In this document: one piece after another, positions 23,312 through 30,404 of the stretch | Position numbering within the stretch: the first letter of the stretch is position 1 | Layout of the letters: every line of letters starts with the position of its first letter | NCBI GenBank assembly: GCA_965248055.1 | Contig: CBDFIJ010000004.1 | Location: 3,104,001-3,168,000, forward strand | Source: Candidatus Multivoradales bacterium | GTDB taxonomy: Bacteria; Acidobacteriota; Thermoanaerobaculia; Multivoradales; JAHEKO01 | Direction: 5' to 3' | Length of the DNA stretch: 64,000 bases | Made by a program: the position numbers and the translations under genes | The notes under the pieces: model-generated | What the model saw: only the letters and a program-made list of their open reading frames with translations | Database searches by the model: none | Told to the model about the DNA's origin: nothing

Positions 23312-23775
23312 GTCATCCCCGTAGGGAGGGGGTTTCGGGGGGTCGGGGATCTTTGTCAATGCCAGAGACGCTCGGTACGGGACTGCAATTGCCACTAGAT
23401 CCCGGCCCCGCGCCCTCGCACCCGCCGGGATGACGAGGGAATGGGTCCTGCCGGGGTGACGGAGCGGATCCCGGCTAGCGTCTCCTCAACCTGCGGGCGG
23501 GGATCAACCCCGCCCCTGCGGAGAGGGCGGTCGCCATCACATTCTTTGTACCCCGTCGCGATTATTGGCCGTAGGGAGCCGGCAATCCCATTTCTTGGTA
23601 GGGAGGGGTTTACCCCCTCCCACGGCTCATTCCGAAATTGTCGCCTTGAAACCTGCCCCCCACATCGTCATCCCCGAAGGTTGGGGGTCTTTGGGGGTCG
23701 GGGATCTTTCAAGCGTAGGGGCATGCGTGCTGCCCTGAGATCCCGGCCCCCCGTCGGCCCACCCGCCGGGATGAC
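23312..23775. repeat. REP cluster: GTCATCCC/GGGATGAC pairs and GTAG-type palindromes
   Basis: GTCATCCCC...GGGGATC and GATCCCGG...CCGGGATGAC pairs at ~23312-23435 and ~23667-23775; GGGCGGGGATCAACCCCGCCCCT at 23495; GTAGGGAGGGGTTTACCCCCTCCC at 23598. Confidence 0.85.
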
Positions 23776-23866
23776 GAAAGAAAAGACGAGGCGCCTTTTG
23801 TTGGTTTGGAGTTGACCCGTTTTAGTGGACACTAAGAATAGGATCATTGGATCTAAGGAGGTGTTC

Positions 23867-24163
23867 ATGTCAGTAGTTCGTCGTCGATTTAGCAAAGAGT
23901 TCAAACGAGAAGCAGTACATCAGGCTCTGGAAAGCGATCTGCCGATGTCGTCAGTGGCTCGAGATCTAGGCATCCGGCCGAATCTTCTGGGTAGGTGGAA
24001 GCAGCAGTACTTGGATGACCCAGACCAAGCGTTTCCCGGCGAGGGGCGTTTAAAGCCAGAGGAAGAGGAGTTACGTCGTCTTCGCCGCGAGCTGGCGATG
24101 ATGAGAGAGGAACACGCGATCCTAAAAAAAGCGGTGGCGATCTTCTCGGATCGACGACGATGA
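23867..24163 (+). CDS. IS3 OrfA
   Basis: AAGGAGG SD; RRRFSKEFKREAV HTH; ILKKA end; A7G frameshift motif at 24124-24131. Confidence 0.92.
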   Translation: MSVVRRRFSKEFKREAVHQALESDLPMSSVARDLGIRPNLLGRWKQQYLDDPDQAFPGEGRLKPEEEELRRLRRELAMMREEHAILKKAVAIFSDRRR

Positions 24164-25059
24164 GATTCGATTTCATTCGCCGTCATCGGCGCGAGTATTC
24201 TGTACTCGTCATGTGTCGTGTGCTGGAGGTGTCACGCAGCGGCTATTACGCTTGGGTGCGTCGCCCAGAGTGCCGACGTGGCCGAGAAGATCGCCGACTT
24301 CTGACTCAGATTCGTATGATTCACTCCGAGAGTCGGCGGACGTATGGGAGCCCTAGAATCCATGGTGAGTTGCGAGACCAGGGGTTTTGCCACAGCCGCA
24401 AGCGTGTGACTCGGTTAATGCACAATCACGGCATTCGCTCAATACGGGCCAAGCAGTTTCGGGTAACGACGCAGTCGAAACATAAGCATCCGGTGGCTGC
24501 GAATGTATTGGACCGCCGTTTCGAGGTCGAAGATCCCAATCATGTGTGGTTGAGCGATATAACCTACATTCCCACCACTGAAGGCTGGCTGTACTTGGCA
24601 GCGATCATGGACCTTGGGTCCCGGCGTATTGTTGGTTTTTCGACCAGTACTCGTCTGACTCAGGATTTGACTCTACGGGCCCTGGAGAGCGCTCTCTATG
24701 AGCGCCGGCCAGATCCTGGCAGGCTCCTGCACCACTCTGATCGCGGTAGTCAGTACGCAGCGTCTGACTATCGCAAGAAACTCGAAGATGCCCGCATCAC
24801 GGTGAGTATGAGCCGTAAAGGCAACTGCTGGGACAACGCACCGATGGAGAGCTTCTTTGCCAGCTTGAAGACCGAGCGGGTGCATCATGTGCGCTATACC
24901 AGTCGTCGACAAGCTCAAAGAGACCTCTTCGATTACATCGAAATTTTCTACAACCGCAAGCGACGCCACTCAAGCCTCGGAGGCTTGAGTCCTGTCGCCT
25001 ATGAAGACCGACTCGCTGCTTTGGCAACGGTCGCTAACCAAACCGCTCTCGCTCAATGA
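24160..25059 (+). CDS. IS3 OrfB DDE transposase
   Basis: WLSDITYI, HHSDRGSQY, DNAPMESFF and YNRKRRHSSLG motifs; ATGA overlap with orfA. Confidence 0.95.
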   Translation: MRFDFIRRHRREYSVLVMCRVLEVSRSGYYAWVRRPECRRGREDRRLLTQIRMIHSESRRTYGSPRIHGELRDQGFCHSRKRVTRLMHNHGIRSIRAKQFRVTTQSKHKHPVAANVLDRRFEVEDPNHVWLSDITYIPTTEGWLYLAAIMDLGSRRIVGFSTSTRLTQDLTLRALESALYERRPDPGRLLHHSDRGSQYAASDYRKKLEDARITVSMSRKGNCWDNAPMESFFASLKTERVHHVRYTSRRQAQRDLFDYIEIFYNRKRRHSSLGGLSPVAYEDRLAALATVANQTALAQ

Positions 25060-25164
25060 GAGCTAAACTATGTGTCCACCAAAACGGGGCAGCTTCAGTT
25101 GTAGCTTTGGCCGGTCTCCGCAACCTTCGGGCGGGGATCAACCCCGCCCCTTGTATGTTTGTGG

Positions 25165-25305
25165 AGATGAGTCTCTTCGGCAGGGAAGCTGTCCCGCCCC
25201 TTAGGCCCTGAGCCTGTACGTAGATCAGCTCCCTGCCTTACCTCTCGAACGCCGGAGAGAATCTGAGGCCCTAGAGCCTGCATTCACAAGGTCGGTGCGA
25301 GAGTT
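25165..25305 (+). ncRNA. IS110 bridge RNA with target- and donor-binding loops; ends approximate
   Basis: Stem 25179-25191/25226-25237 encloses CCCGCCCCT and CGTAG; stem 25242-25247/25298-25303 encloses AGAGAATCT and ACAAG. These match the target and donor junctions. Confidence 0.85.
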
Positions 25306-25354
25306 ACCCAAGGTCAGGGAGCCGAAGGGACAGTGTAACCGAAAGGAGAAAACG

Positions 25355-26359
25355 ATGAAGAAGCCACTGCCCTGCGGAATCGAAGTCAGCGCCAAGTCCT
25401 TTGAGCTATGTCTCAAGCTTGCCTCAGGCAAGCTTGAGAGGCGACAGTTTGCAAATACTGCGTCCGGTATTCGCCAGCTGGCCGCTTGGCTCAAGAGACA
25501 AGAACGGCCCGTTCAAGCGGTCCTGGAAGCCACCGGAGTGTACGGTCAAGATCTGACCTTCACTCTGTGCAAAACCACAGGTGTTGAGGTCATGGTTGCC
25601 AACCCTCGTGCTGCTCGCCGTTTCGCTGAAGCTTTGATGAAAAGAGCCAAGACCGACCGCATCGACGCGGAAATGCTTTGTCAGTTTGCTCAACGCATGC
25701 CGTTTGAAGAGTTCCAGCCACCTGGTGACCAAGAACTGGCCCTAAGGTCCATCACCCGCCGCATCCTGGCATTGACTCAACAACGAACAGAGGAGAAGAA
25801 CCGACTCCATGCTGCATCTGCCTCTAGAACGATTCCGGCAGCTGTAAGCCAAAGTCTTAATCGCCAAATCGTTGTACTGAATCGGGAAATCGATCGGCTC
25901 GACAAACAGGCACTCAAACTCATCAACAACCAGACCAAACTCAAGATACGTTATCAATTCCTGCTGAGTATCCCGGGAATCGGACCCAAGAGCGCATCTC
26001 GGATTCTTGCCGAACTCGCAGTGCTGCCCAAAGAGCTCACCCCTAGGCAATGGGTCGCTCATGCCGGACTCGATCCGAAACCGGTCGAATCCGGCTCCTC
26101 TGTCAACAAACCACGAAGAATCTCCAAGACCGGAAACTCACGCCTTAGACAGGCTCTCTACATGCCCGCTCTCTCGGCTGCGAGGGCCAATCCTCACTGT
26201 CGAAGTTTCTATCTCAGTCTCCAACAACGAGGACTAAAACCCATGCAAGCGATTGTCGCCATCATGAGAAAACTACTCCACGCCATTCATGGAATCTGGA
26301 CACACGCCACTGACTTTGACGCTACAAAGCTCTTCCCAAATGTCGTTATTAACCATTGA
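25355..26359 (+). CDS. IS110-family recombinase (DEDD plus Ser domain)
   Basis: AAGGAG SD; GIEVS, LEATG, AKTDRIDA, IPGIG, ESGSS, ISKTGNSRLRQALY and AIMRKL motifs. Confidence 0.95.
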   Translation: MKKPLPCGIEVSAKSFELCLKLASGKLERRQFANTASGIRQLAAWLKRQERPVQAVLEATGVYGQDLTFTLCKTTGVEVMVANPRAARRFAEALMKRAKTDRIDAEMLCQFAQRMPFEEFQPPGDQELALRSITRRILALTQQRTEEKNRLHAASASRTIPAAVSQSLNRQIVVLNREIDRLDKQALKLINNQTKLKIRYQFLLSIPGIGPKSASRILAELAVLPKELTPRQWVAHAGLDPKPVESGSSVNKPRRISKTGNSRLRQALYMPALSAARANPHCRSFYLSLQQRGLKPMQAIVAIMRKLLHAIHGIWTHATDFDATKLFPNVVINH

Positions 26360-26406
26360 CCCCGAACAGAGAATCTACGGAGCGAGCGGTCGCTGTTACA
26401 TTTCTT

Positions 26407-26432
26407 GTAGGGGAGGGGTTTAGCCCCTCCCG
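26407..26432. repeat. GTAG-type REP
   Basis: GTAGGGGAGGGGTTTAGCCCCTCCCG hairpin. Confidence 0.75.
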
Positions 26433-26529
26433 GTTCTCTTGCAAGGTGGCACGAGTGTTCGGGCCGACGAATCACCAGCCAACAACACCAAGGACAAGCC
26501 GTTACAATTCGTAGCAGAGGGAAAGAACT

Positions 26530-27267
26530 ATGGAGTGGCTGAGCAACCCGGAAACTTGGATCGCATTGGCAACTTTGACCGCGGTCGAAATTGTTCTCGG
26601 AATTGACAATATTGTTTTCATCGCGGTGCTGGCGGGGCGCCTGCCACCGGAGCAACAGGGACGCGCTCGCACCCTTGGGCTCGCTGCTGCGATGCTCACT
26701 CGTATCCTGCTCTTGCTGTCGATTACTTGGGTGATGGGCTTGACCAAGCCGTTGTTTGAGGTGCTTGATTTTACCTTCTCCGGTCGCGATCTGATCTTGA
26801 TCGGCGGTGGGTTGTTTCTGTTGGGCAAGAGCACTCTGGAGATTCATCACAGTCTAGAAGGTGTGGATGGGGAAGTGCATACTAGAGTCGTGGCGTCCTT
26901 TGCGGGAGTGATCTTTCAGATCATGATCCTAGATATTGTTTTCTCCCTAGACTCGGTGATCACTGCGGTCGGTTTGGCGGACCAAGTTGGGGTGATGGTG
27001 GCAGCTATTGTGATCGCGGTGGCAGTGATGATGCTGTCCGCCGGGACCATTTCCAAGTTCATTGACGAACACCCGTCTTTGAAGATCTTGGCTCTATCAT
27101 TTCTCTTGTTGATCGGCATGAGCCTGGTCGCTGAAGGCTGGGAGTTCCATATCCCCAAGGGATACATCTACTTCGCGATGGCGTTTTCAATCTTTGTCGA
27201 GATTCTCAACTTGCGTCTGCGTCGCGGCCGGGCTGTCAAGCTGCACAAGCAGTTTGAAGACAAGTGA
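26530..27267 (+). CDS. TerC-family membrane protein
   Basis: EIVLGIDNIVFI, LDIVFSLDSVITAVG and HIPKGYIYFAM motifs. Confidence 0.95.
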   Translation: MEWLSNPETWIALATLTAVEIVLGIDNIVFIAVLAGRLPPEQQGRARTLGLAAAMLTRILLLLSITWVMGLTKPLFEVLDFTFSGRDLILIGGGLFLLGKSTLEIHHSLEGVDGEVHTRVVASFAGVIFQIMILDIVFSLDSVITAVGLADQVGVMVAAIVIAVAVMMLSAGTISKFIDEHPSLKILALSFLLLIGMSLVAEGWEFHIPKGYIYFAMAFSIFVEILNLRLRRGRAVKLHKQFEDK

Positions 27268-27300
27268 CTGGGTGACCTCACCCTCCCTTGGTGTCACTTG

Positions 27301-27666
27301 GTAGGAGCGGGGTTTACCTCGCCCGCGGTTTTCGATCTACATCATCAGGAGAGACAAAAGGCCGGGCTGGTACCGCCGGTCTCTGGCGCTGATGAAGATC
27401 CCCGACCCCCAGAACCCCCAACCTTCGGGGATGACATTGGTGCTTTGTGACCTTGTTGCTGAGTTGCTGATCTGCCGACTGGCGCTGCCTCTTGTAGGGG
27501 TGGGGTTTATCCCCACCCGCGGGAGCCCATAAAGGGCTCCCCTACGGAGAGGTGTGTCTTTGAGCCCGTCATCCCGGCGAGGCGTTTCAACCTCGTCATC
27601 CCGGCGGGTGTTAGAGCCTGCCCCGGCGCAAGGGGGGTGAGGGCCCGGCGCGGGGGGCCGGGATCC
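27301..27666. repeat. REP cluster between convergent genes
   Basis: GTAG...CTAC doublet at ~27494-27545 plus several GTCATCCC/GGGATGAC units. Confidence 0.85.
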
Positions 27667-27689
27667 GTCTCCTCATGAGATCGGAAAAC

Positions 27690-27716
27690 AAAAAAGGAGC
27701 CCCGTGCGGGGCTCCT
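27690..27716 (-). terminator. Rho-independent terminator of the PDZ gene
   Basis: AGGAGCCCCG-TG-CGGGGCTCCT inverted repeat with a T tract on the minus strand. Confidence 0.75.
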
Positions 27717-27734
27717 GAAGGAGAGTTTGTTTAC

Positions 27735-28670
27735 TTACTCCATGGCTGGGCAGTCAGCCACCTCGCCATTGACTTTGCACGAGCAGTTACTGCGGTCTTC
27801 GCTTTCGCAGCGAACTTCGACTTGACACTCTTCCAAACCTTCGCATAACTCGTCGGTATCGAAATCGTGAACTGCCATGGCGTGGACTCCTGGAGCGCCT
27901 GGAGTGTGAGGCATACCCTTCATCTTGCGAATCTCGATGCGTTTGTTGGCATGCGGTGCTCCCATCATGTGCATCTTGCCGATCGGCAATTTTTTGGTCT
28001 CGAGGGTTGCCTCAACTACGGTCTCACGACCGTCGCGCAGCACTCCCAGACGGACCGCGTCGCCGCCTTCTTTGCCGTGGATGGCACCGACCAGGCCGTG
28101 TCCGGCGAGGGGTTCGCCATCGACCGAAGTGACGATGTCACCGACCGCCAAACCGGCGCGGGCCGCGGGGCTGTCCTCCATGACCTTCGAGACCAGTACC
28201 GCATGGTCTGCGGCGGCACCGAAGTGTTCGGCGAGTTCTTCGGTCAAAGATAGAAACTGCACACCCAGGTAGGCGCGCGGTCCGTGGGCGAAGCCAAAGG
28301 AATGCCCTTCATCGTTCGACCACGCCATCGGCGCGTTGTGCTCGCCGGAGCCGCTCTTGTAGACAAAGACTTGGTGATTTTCGCAGTCTTCTCCCTGACA
28401 TGGGTGCAGCATGTCGCCGTTCATCACTTTTTCGATGATCACATCGACGTCACATTCTTGGCCCTGGCAATCTTCATTGACCCAAGCCAAGGGTGCTTCC
28501 CGGTCGTGGACAAAGACGTGTTTTTGTTCGTCGCAATCTCCGTCTTCGCACTTGATAATGATTTTCTTGACCGTTTTGCGCTCGGTCTTGGGCGCATCGT
28601 CGCCCGCCTGGGCGCTGCTGACCGCAAGTCCGAGGGAGAGGATTGCGGCGAGGATGGTTGTTGGTCGCAT
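27735..28670 (-). CDS. Secreted PDZ-domain protein with Cys/His-rich flanks
   Basis: Signal peptide (AQA); AYLGV...VSKVMEDSPAARAGLAVGDIVTSVDG PDZ signature. Confidence 0.85.
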   Translation of the reverse strand: MRPTTILAAILSLGLAVSSAQAGDDAPKTERKTVKKIIIKCEDGDCDEQKHVFVHDREAPLAWVNEDCQGQECDVDVIIEKVMNGDMLHPCQGEDCENHQVFVYKSGSGEHNAPMAWSNDEGHSFGFAHGPRAYLGVQFLSLTEELAEHFGAAADHAVLVSKVMEDSPAARAGLAVGDIVTSVDGEPLAGHGLVGAIHGKEGGDAVRLGVLRDGRETVVEATLETKKLPIGKMHMMGAPHANKRIEIRKMKGMPHTPGAPGVHAMAVHDFDTDELCEGLEECQVEVRCESEDRSNCSCKVNGEVADCPAME

Positions 28671-28881
28671 TGGGGCGATTCTCCTATTTTGGATTGGATT
28701 GTTTTTGCAGATTTGCAGGTTGTTTCATCGGTTTGGGTACTCGGCGGTATTGCCGCCGTTCGATCAGTACAACGACCCGAGCTGAGAAAAGGTTCCGACA
28801 ATCGGATTTGCTCCGGAAACTGGGCAATTGGGCGAATCTCGGTTTGGTAACTGCGTGGATCGCTCATATCATCGGTGCCTC

Positions 28882-29880
28882 ATGAGTGACTCGCCCCAAG
28901 CCCTGCCTCTGGTTGTTCTCGCTGGTAGCGACGAGGAGCCGGCGGCGCTTCCCGAGGGCGCTGACAAACACGCGATCCACGGCAAGAAGGGGCTTGAGGT
29001 GCAGGTGGAAGGCCGAGCGCTGATCGACCACGTTTTGGAACGGATGCAGGCGTCTGGCCACTTTGGCCCAACTTATGTTGGAGGGCCGCGGTCGGTCTAC
29101 GGGGAGAACCGCGGAAGCGCTGAGGTGATCGATACCGATCGGAGTCTGGGCGAGAATCTGCAAACCGTGATTGAGGCGATGATCGAGCGGCATCCTAGTC
29201 AGCCGGTTGCCTTCACCACCTACGACATCATTCCCGACCTAGACGAGTTGGATACCTTGATGGAGGACTATCGGGAACATGTGCCGATGGACTTTTGGTA
29301 TCCGTTGGTTCTGGCGCGCGAAGAAGATCTGGGGGAGTCGGCGTGGAAGCCCAAGTATCGCTTGAGACCGGAGGTTGGCGAGCCAGCGCGAGTGGTGTTG
29401 CCTTGCCATCTGATCGTAATGCAGCCTGGGGTTTTCCGTTTGGGACTGGTCTACAAGGTTCTGGATCTGTTGTATCGGAGCAGGAATCGACCTGTTCTCT
29501 ATCGCTTGGCATACGGCCTCAGCAGGATGGCTGGTTATTTTGTTTCTCGCGATTTTCGCCACCTGATGGCGTTGCGACCGCCGGTGGTTACCTTGCCGAT
29601 CATGTTCCAGGGCACCCGATTGGCACTGCGTTTGCGCAGGGGGGCGATGACCACCCAGGAACTTGCCGATCGGATTCGGGCAATCCTGGTGCGCTGGCGT
29701 CACCGCAAGGATAATCCCGATCGGCGGGGCCGAATTCCGTTGGTTGACGCCTTGTCCTTTGCCAAAGACATTGACACCTTTGAAGAGGCGGAAGAGCAGC
29801 GCAAGTTATTTCGACTGCACCGCACCAAGGCTGCCACTGCCAAGTTTCGTTCCCGTTTCCGCCAGTCCCCGCCTTCTTGA
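28882..29880 (+). CDS. MobA-like NTP transferase-fold protein
   Basis: VVLAG...GKK...VEGRALIDHVL N-terminus and DIDTFEE C-terminal motif; start moved to ATG 28882. Confidence 0.65.
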   Translation: MSDSPQALPLVVLAGSDEEPAALPEGADKHAIHGKKGLEVQVEGRALIDHVLERMQASGHFGPTYVGGPRSVYGENRGSAEVIDTDRSLGENLQTVIEAMIERHPSQPVAFTTYDIIPDLDELDTLMEDYREHVPMDFWYPLVLAREEDLGESAWKPKYRLRPEVGEPARVVLPCHLIVMQPGVFRLGLVYKVLDLLYRSRNRPVLYRLAYGLSRMAGYFVSRDFRHLMALRPPVVTLPIMFQGTRLALRLRRGAMTTQELADRIRAILVRWRHRKDNPDRRGRIPLVDALSFAKDIDTFEEAEEQRKLFRLHRTKAATAKFRSRFRQSPPS

Positions 29881-29902
29881 GATCCATTCTCTTCGCTTAA
29901 GA

Positions 29903-30134
29903 GATCCCCGACCCCCCGACCCCCCGAACCCCCGACCCCCCGACCCCCCGACCCCCAGAACCCCAGAACCCCCGACCCCCAGAACCCCAGAACCCCCGAC
30001 CCCCAGAACCCCAGAACCCCCGACCCCCAGAACCCCAGAACCCCCAGAACCCCAGACCCCCCGACCCCCAGAACCCCAGAACCCCCAACCCCCAGAACCC
30101 CAGAACCCCAGAACCCCCTCCCTTCGGGGATGAC
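29903..30134. repeat. REP half-unit expanded by an 8 bp C-rich tandem repeat
   Basis: GATCCCCG, then about 25 CCCCAGAA/CCCCCGAC units, then CCTTCGGGGATGAC; unexpanded form at ~27397-27435. Confidence 0.9.
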
Positions 30135-30183
30135 GATGTTGGGTAATTCCGGCTACCGGCCTGCCGTCCGGGCGCTGTCTCTT

Positions 30184-30404
30184 GTAGGGGCGGGGTTTAC
30201 CCCGGCCCGTGGCCTTTTCGGTCTACATCAGAAGAGGTGAGAAGGCCGGGCGTTCAAAAAGGACGCCCCTACGAAGAGGGCGCGTGATTTTGTGCAGCGC
30301 AGCACCGCCGTTGTCATCCGTAGGGGTGGGGTTTATCCCAGCCCGGGTCATAGATCTAGATCGGATAAGGCAAAAGGCTGGCCGCCCGTAAAGGACGCCC
30401 CTAC
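30184..30404. repeat. Two GTAG...CTAC REP doublets
   Basis: GTAGGGG(C/T)GGGGTTTA.CCC.GCCCG ... GGACGCCCCTAC occurs twice. Confidence 0.8.

Follow-up and report, generated by a model that had tools for sequence, protein, structure and literature searches.

A putative bridge RNA in an IS110-group insertion sequence of a Multivoradales bacterium matches a host repeat and the element's own ends

Introduction

What guides a mobile element whose left flank is repeated letter for letter inside the element itself? This question is posed by an insertion sequence (IS) of the IS110 group in a 64,000-nucleotide stretch of DNA from a Candidatus Multivoradales bacterium (contig C4:3104001-3168000 in a genome of 3.4 Mb; "the window" denotes this whole stretch). 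An earlier interpretation of the window, which we call the sequence-only reading, had described an IS110 recombinase that fits the bridge-RNA model of IS621, and had taken the element to be aimed at a repeat of its host. IS1111-group elements, which use a seekRNA, belong to the same recombinase family and follow the same RNA-guided logic. For the element in the window we asked which part of it would act as the guide, what this guide would pair with, and whether the element is intact or a remnant.

We conclude that 25152-26376 is an intact and recently active IS110-group insertion sequence that moves by bridge-RNA-guided recombination, as IS621 does, and we put the probability of this reading at about 0.9.

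Results

The element consists of a left end of 203 nt (25152-25354), a recombinase gene and a right end of 17 nt (26360-26376), with CT at both junctions and no inverted repeats (Table 1). The left end holds four stretches that match the DNA of the two junctions, all of them where the sequence-only reading had located four readable guides. One 9-mer repeats the host DNA on the left of the element, and CGTAG (25219-25223), which lies opposite it, is the reverse complement of CT-ACG at the right junction (26375-26379). A second 9-mer repeats the element's right end, and opposite it ACAAG fits the left junction; CAU at 25281-25283 can also pair with ATG at 25155-25157 across a 2-nt UC bulge, which would give a discontiguous right donor guide. 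Such discontiguous pairing is known in IS621 (Durrant et al. 2024, PMC11208160). By chance, 1.15 and 0.40 occurrences of the two 9-mers are expected per 64-kb window, both strands counted, and about 0.002 and 0.0006 in one strand of the 203-nt left end. The presence of both 9-mers within 203 nt, each opposite a 5-mer that fits the other junction, is far beyond chance.

The recombinase has an N-terminal DEDD RuvC-like domain (DEDD_Tnp_IS110, PF01548; 2.3e-27, residues 7-153) and a C-terminal Tnp domain (Transposase_20, PF02371; 9.1e-22, residues 201-286). The bridge recombinase of IS621 aligns with it over the full length (1.4e-45), and its best match among solved structures is ISCro4 (PDB 9t56; 8.9e-49, residues 7-328), where the likeness is one of protein sequence alone. 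Both domains, the full-length matches to IS621 and ISCro4, the layout of the element and the RNA described below bear out the proposal that this is an IS110 recombinase of the bridge-RNA type. The catalytic set comprises E10, E58, D101 and D104 together with the conserved serines S246 and S249. In a 30-sequence alignment of the recombinase with its nearest database relatives, which are 49-65% identical to it, E58, D101, D104, S246 and S249 were invariant, and the first catalytic position was Glu in 25 sequences and Asp in 5. Among 5.8 billion clusters the closest protein was 66% identical, with 4948 proteins at E <= 1e-30, in keeping with the earlier view of a distinct ortholog with its own specificity. 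Six of 60 related genomes contained a recombinase match at E <= 1e-40, the best at 48% identity; in the same search, the congener G001 gave no match at this threshold. The first 30 codons of the gene also contain a 29-nt near-perfect palindrome (25411-25439; 13-bp stem and 3-nt loop), with no T-run after it.

The guides lie in two stem-loops. The fold was written by hand from the sequence, and a covariance model, R1, was built from the window locus and one variant fragment of the element in the same genome (L003) only. In this fold, 25179-25191 pairs with 25226-25237 to enclose an internal loop and the hairpin 25203-25215, and 25242-25255 pairs with 25292-25303 to enclose an internal loop and the hairpin 25266-25279; these hairpins are the twin AGGC...GCCT structures that had been pointed out in both loops. 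A search of genome contigs with the single protein found no relative, and a profile search was used in its place. R1 was then searched in 167 related loci (87 from genomes and 80 from metagenomes), which came from the protein-profile search or from the genomes of relatives. It matched upstream of the recombinase gene, on the gene strand and at E <= 0.001, in 77 of the 87 genome loci and 72 of the 80 metagenome loci. Folding the left end and building a covariance model had been proposed earlier as a check, and the outcome is a two-loop RNA that is kept and covaries, with matches in 149/167 loci.

Two alignments fitted to R1 were examined for covariation. They held 69 and 71 rows (input, 69/87 and 69/80 loci), with identical duplicates, matches cut by a contig end and loci without a match omitted; L012 and L013, which lay above the cut-off, were dropped from the first. 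Standard pairs filled 89.6% and 90.7% of the pair cells, compared with 32-48% when partners were slid. Changes on both sides were found in 24 of 32 pairs in each alignment, and none of 500 shuffles reached the observed covariation score. When 24 of the 138 RNAs were aligned independently with MAFFT, RNAalifold returned both outer stems and both inner hairpins, with 26 predicted pairs of which 16 were compensatory. Strong bridge-RNA matches were also seen in two contigs of 1.6-1.7 kb that are labelled as archaeal metagenome-assembled genomes (L068 and L070; Methanosarcinaceae and Candidatus Methanovorans), labels that could reflect transfer or a binning error.

If the loops are guides, each relative's loops should track its own flanks. 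The four guides of every relative were taken from the alignments, anchored on the stems. For the left target guide, the left boundary was set by the conserved start TGTA[TC]NT with the guide not used; 100 of 138 rows showed a single left-end motif with sufficient flank, and these yielded 97 distinct pairs. Flank positions -8 to -1 matched their own guide at frequencies of 0.59-0.93, versus 0.32-0.88 for permuted pairs; the core positions -2 and -1 lay near the permuted values (0.93 and 0.88, versus 0.87 and 0.88). Position -9 gave no guide signal in these pairs (0.24 versus 0.20 permuted), and therefore the first base of the 9-mer is probably no guide base. The 9-nt identity described earlier thus stands at 25193-25201, and the effective left target guide is probably 8 nt including the core, not 9.

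The other guides were followed in the same alignments. The first 8 nt of the left donor guide occurred with at most one mismatch in the right-end zone of 104/125 loci, compared with 41/138 for an equal stretch of open reading frame (ORF). For the right target guide, the boundary was set via the left donor guide match, and 96 of 125 rows yielded 82 distinct pairs, 79 of them with a CT core. In these 79 pairs the right flank from +1 to +5 agreed with the complement of the guide at 0.96, 0.97, 0.77, 0.76 and 0.61, versus 0.72, 0.43, 0.40, 0.34 and 0.27 for permuted pairs. The predicted right target guide of the clade is the core plus five bases; CGTAG, as first described, does pair with CT-ACG, and is extended here to UACGUAG, which reaches +5 with +4 mismatched. 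Right guides longer than that of IS621 are reported for some orthologues (Durrant et al. 2024, PMC11208160). Opposite the second core base lies the final base of the left donor guide; among 138 RNAs it was U in only 57, C in 46, A in 18 and G in 8. Right ends finish in CT although this last base is often not U; the guide in the window has U.

These data bear on the possibility that the identity of the 9-mer and the left flank is a piece of captured host repeat, or a duplication of the assembly, and no guide at all. In favour of this view, the GC-rich host repeat is present in several copies, and the window has 4 occurrences of CCCGCCCCT. The match nevertheless occupies the 5' side of an internal loop and shares the register of the 97 distinct relatives with unrelated flanks, the donor loop relates likewise to the element's own ends, and the variant fragment L003 changes guide and flank together. 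We consider capture or duplication extremely improbable.

Further positions point in the same direction as the guides. Hiraizumi et al. (PMC11208158) showed that each right guide is followed by two handshake bases, which pair with positions 6-7 in the other DNA once the strands have been exchanged and must not pair with their own DNA. The corresponding bases here are AU in the target loop and GU in the donor loop (Table 1). Among 91 distinct RNAs with a CT core, the first handshake base of the target loop pairs with donor position 7 in 91/91 and with its own target in 4/91, and that of the donor loop pairs with target position 7 in 80/91, with G and C switching together with the target.

The guide RNA might instead lie elsewhere. 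IS1111-group elements are described as having short left ends and long right ends, with long subterminal inverted repeats (Durrant et al., PMC11208160), which differs from the 203-nt left end and 17-nt right end of the window element. If the element nonetheless had an IS1111-type seekRNA downstream of its gene, the left-end structure would only regulate expression of the recombinase, and some observations fit such a role: the leader at 25172-25180 can pair with the ribosome-binding region in the minimum free energy (MFE) fold, and the small RNAs of ISPpu9 have been proposed as expression regulators (cited in Durrant et al., PMC11208160). This arrangement is hardly credible here, because only 17 nt follow the stop codon and leave no room for a downstream RNA, and the target and donor sequences are carried by the left-end loops. 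As an observation in its own right, the 5' leader UCUCUUCGG pairs with 25335-25345, the ribosome-binding-site region of the recombinase gene, in the MFE fold, and may act as a translational brake; the whole fold on which this pairing is seen is no better than shuffles.

The left target is part of a host repeat. With the element removed, the other strand reads GTAG and then a GC-rich palindrome; the hairpin was also called terminator-like, and a T-rich stretch of the left end follows it. Of 96 related left flanks, 20 likewise have the 3' arm of a hairpin as the left target, in unrelated sequences; 50 shuffles gave 3.3 on average and 8 at most. ISPpu10 of Pseudomonas putida is reported to have as its left target the 3' arm of a GC-rich stem-loop in a repeat (Na et al., bioRxiv 10.64898/2026.03.19.712850). 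The window target shows this same arrangement, with an 8-bp stem within 25129-25149, whereas the host repeat family of ISPpu10 is far larger. By analogy, the target hairpin might serve as a structural gate, an idea put forward by Na et al. for ISPpu10.

A loose hairpin pattern found 39 loci on C4, of which 14 are vacant with an adjacent TAC, 4 run into the element's left end and 1 into a right-end remnant. For the motif GTAGGGG[A/C]GGGG, this genome has 14 occurrences and the congener, which lacks the element, has 57, versus 0 for the reversed control. Since the congener has the repeat without the element, the family appears to predate the element in this genus. Only 14 of the 39 hairpin loci lie inside an ORF of at least 150 amino acids, versus 91% of genome bases (by stop-to-stop ORFs, a crude proxy). 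GTAG-type copies number about 20, below the hundreds expected of repetitive extragenic palindromes (REPs). A PF01797 search gave 13 Y1 transposase matches in the genome, most in open frames of about 300 amino acids, and none within 13.9 kb of any of the 39 hairpin loci; these proteins may serve another repeat family. The target repeat thus resembles a REP by form and location, and its family is small. Of the host GTAG-type REP proposed earlier, the GTAG-headed and mostly extragenic palindrome holds, and the copy number and the lack of a nearby Y1 transposase do not fit.

The 7 kb surrounding the element (23495-30194; C4:3127495-3134323) hold seven hairpin repeats of the target family. Several repeats are two-hairpin units, in which a GTAG-headed palindrome of the GGGAGCCC type adjoins a GGG[ACT]GGGG palindrome, and in the congener G001 such units occur in tandem clusters.

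Other copies in the genome show where the element has gone. A second copy lies on the minus strand of C4, outside the window, and is identical to the window element at 1225/1225 bases; its flanks are CCCTCCCCT and ACGAAG, and it is oriented to a sister hairpin as the window element is to its own. L003 is a left end at 94% identity that retains the full two-loop RNA and just 11 nt of the gene. It has CCCTCCCCT both as flank and as guide, so that guide and target have changed together by one base. L006 is a 16-nt left-end stub after CCCCTCCCCT, and L004 (G000:C4:433785-433878) is a 72-bp right-end remnant that abuts a repeat hairpin. Recombination at an internal pseudo-target, CACGCCACT, was considered as the origin of L004 and rejected, the junction being unlike a clean CT-core crossover. 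The congener gave no orthologous empty site, as its TerC-like gene is 74% identical and has no repeat upstream, and therefore vacant sister repeats within the genome were used instead; these join both flanks with a single CT. The sequence-only reading had looked to other genomic copies for the same site, and the second copy and two remnants do lie at the corresponding position of sister repeats, all oriented alike, with the site of the second copy one base off the guide.

The identity of the two copies shows only recent mobility, not a role for the bridge RNA, and it is on mobility that the next alternative turns. Were the element an immobile IS110 relic, with guide matches that are fossils of a past insertion and a Glu that marks decay, one would understand E10 in place of the Asp of IS621 and ISCro4, the three decayed copies (L003, L004 and L006) and a circle junction not seen in the contigs; yet two copies at different loci are identical throughout with the ORF open, and Glu is the majority residue of the clade while the other catalytic residues are invariant. 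We judge a relic to be quite improbable.

Several observations weigh against bridge-RNA-guided movement and are to be set beside the evidence above. The first catalytic residue, Glu, departs from that of IS621 and ISCro4. Both copies have a mismatch at +4 of the right target, their flanks being ACGGA (copy 1) and ACGAA (copy 2). Vacant perfect 12-mer sites are few, with CCCGCCCCTACG (G-type) found once and CCCTCCCCTACG (T-type) four times. No joint, circle junction or empty site was found in the contigs of four DNA runs from one sample, in which rare forms would not show. For the 145-nt core, the two-loop fold has -48.2 kcal/mol, versus -53.5 for the MFE fold, and the MFE fold of the whole left end differs from the two-loop fold and is no better than shuffles (z = -1.16); we therefore relied on comparative evidence. 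The covariation counts come from alignments fitted to R1, which lean to the model, and RNAalifold was therefore run on the plain MAFFT alignment. No IS621-like 5' stem-loop is evident, about 13 nt lying between the predicted start and the first stem. Rfam gave no match of a bridge-RNA family in the left end, and its two matches were at chance level, below threshold.

The left target of the second copy, finally, has one guide mismatch, at target position 4. Natural IS621 is mostly found at ATCAGGCCTAC though its loop encodes ATCGGGCCTAC, which has been read as tolerance of a mismatch at position 4 (Durrant et al., PMC11208160), the very position mismatched in copy 2. The history of copy 2 would fit such tolerance; it would also fit a change of its guide from T to G, after which the element transposed into the matching G-type repeat that holds copy 1. 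We also note an unlikely third route, in which the orphan RNA of L003 would supply its target loop in trans and steer the recombinase of the intact copies to T-type repeats. Trans guidance is possible in principle because the target loop and donor loop in one IS621 synaptic complex come from two RNA molecules (Hiraizumi et al., PMC11208158), and the target guide of L003, CCCTCCCCT, equals the commoner allele of the host repeat. If true, it would explain how a copy with a G-type guide came to lie in a T-type repeat, and two guide alleles would coexist in one host, each matched to its own repeat allele and one of them separated from any gene.

With guided recombination as the preferred reading, the ends of the element suggest how the RNA would be made. 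No sigma-70-like promoter was found in the integrated element. When the ends are joined, TTGACC and TATGTT come to lie 17 nt apart; among 92 distinct right ends of relatives, 64 have TTGAC at this offset, and the relatives start with TGTAT. A junction promoter across the circle has been reported for IS621 (Durrant et al., PMC11208160), and the predicted circle-junction promoter fits that pattern. In the proposed mechanism, the element would excise as a circle, in which the right-end TTGACC and the left-end TATGTT would form a promoter with 17-nt spacing, and this promoter would drive the bridge RNA from about 25166. The first loop would pair with the host repeat and the second with the circle junction AGAGAAT-CT-TGT. 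The recombinase would exchange strands after the CT core, with the AU and G handshake bases taking the incoming strands, and therefore the GTAG of the repeat would be split between T and A.

Table 1. Positions of the element, its predicted RNA features and the host repeat in the window
Feature	Position	Strand	Remarks
IS110-group insertion sequence	25152..26376	+	1225 bp; CT core counted once, at right end
Recombinase gene	25355..26359	+	334 amino acids; GGAG ahead of ATG
Bridge RNA core as modelled (R1)	25166..25310	+	hand-written fold and covariance model
Target-binding stem-loop	25179-25237	+	model R1
Inner hairpin of target-binding loop, AGGC-CCUGA-GCCU	25203..25215	+	99.6% / 99.3% of cells paired; compensatory changes
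Left target guide, CCCGCCCCT	25193..25201 (effective, probably, 25194-25201)	+	equals left flank 25143-25151
Right target guide, UACGUAG	25217..25223	+	AG to core, UGC to +1 to +3, A mismatched at +4, U to +5
Target-loop handshake guide, AU	25224..25225	+	complementary to donor 6-7 (AT), not target 6-7 (CC)
Donor-binding stem-loop	25242-25303	+	model R1
Left donor guide, AGAGAAUCU (DNA AGAGAATCT)	25256..25264	+	identical to right end 26368-26376
Inner hairpin of donor-binding loop, AGGC-CCUAGA-GCCU	25266..25279	+	98.5% / 98.6% of cells paired
Right donor guide	25281..25290	+	ACAAG (25286-25290) pairs with CT-TGT (25150-25154)
Donor-loop handshake guide, GU	25291..25292	+	G can pair with target position 7 (C)
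Left target, CCGCCC and core CT (25150-25151)	25144..25151	+	identical to guide 25194-25201
Right target, ACGGA	26377..26381	+	read from sequence; family +1 to +5 profile
Target repeat hairpin, GGGCGGGG-ATCAA-CCCCGCCC	25129..25149	+	8-bp stem; 3' arm is the left target
Vacant sister repeat	23495..23517	+	same hairpin and CCCGCCCCT, then GCG instead of ACG
-35-like hexamer, TTGACC	26356..26361	+	in right end, overlapping stop codon
-10-like hexamer, TATGTT	25154..25159	+	candidate circle-junction promoter

The surroundings of the element hold a second insertion sequence. An IS3-family element occupies 23825-25097, 54 bp upstream of the IS110 left end, with orfA at 23825-24163 (HTH_Tnp_1), orfB at 24160-25059 (rve) and a right end near 25097 (...CAGCTTCA); this IS3 end occurs again 32 nt away from where L003 breaks off. 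Contigs C1-C3 of this genome, G000, are 14.8, 16.7 and 28.4 kb long, with 39-43% G+C compared with 57% for the main contig, and may be plasmids, phage or foreign contigs.

Discussion

The window element is a further natural case of the known bridge-RNA system, and it leaves the general picture of bridge recombinases unaltered; thousands of bridge RNAs have been predicted by similar analysis (Durrant et al., PMC11208160). As IS621 of Escherichia coli is described (PMC11208160, PMC11208158), the two elements share both protein domains, a left-end RNA in which the target loop precedes the donor loop, inner hairpins in both loops, and a CT core included in all four pairings. The IS621 target likewise ends in CTAC and splits a repeat GTAG, and the handshake letters AU and GU equal its A81/U82 and G166/U167 (PMC11208158). 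The differences lie in the target, reported as ATCGGGC-CT-AC for IS621 and here CCGCCC-CT-ACG.A, and in the guides: the left guide of IS621 has 9 nt and its right guide extends to +2, whereas here the effective lengths appear to be 8 nt and to +5. IS621 has Asp at the first catalytic position where this element has Glu, and is described with a 5' stem-loop. It is a distant relative, and the window element is known here from its sequence.

The element adds a fully readable natural bridge system with a distinct target, whose recombinase is distant from those of IS621 and ISCro4. What is new here is modest: the target, a guide/repeat allele pair within one genome, an orphan bridge RNA locus and the details of the clade. 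The one-base guide/repeat allele pair represents a natural retargeting event, and a ready test of mismatch tolerance at position 4. The clade itself is represented by 138 RNAs from many phyla. Its predicted left guide has 8 nt and its predicted right guide extends five bases beyond the core; the first catalytic position is Glu, and about a fifth of the members have hairpin targets. These features may aid the mining of orthologues for genome engineering.

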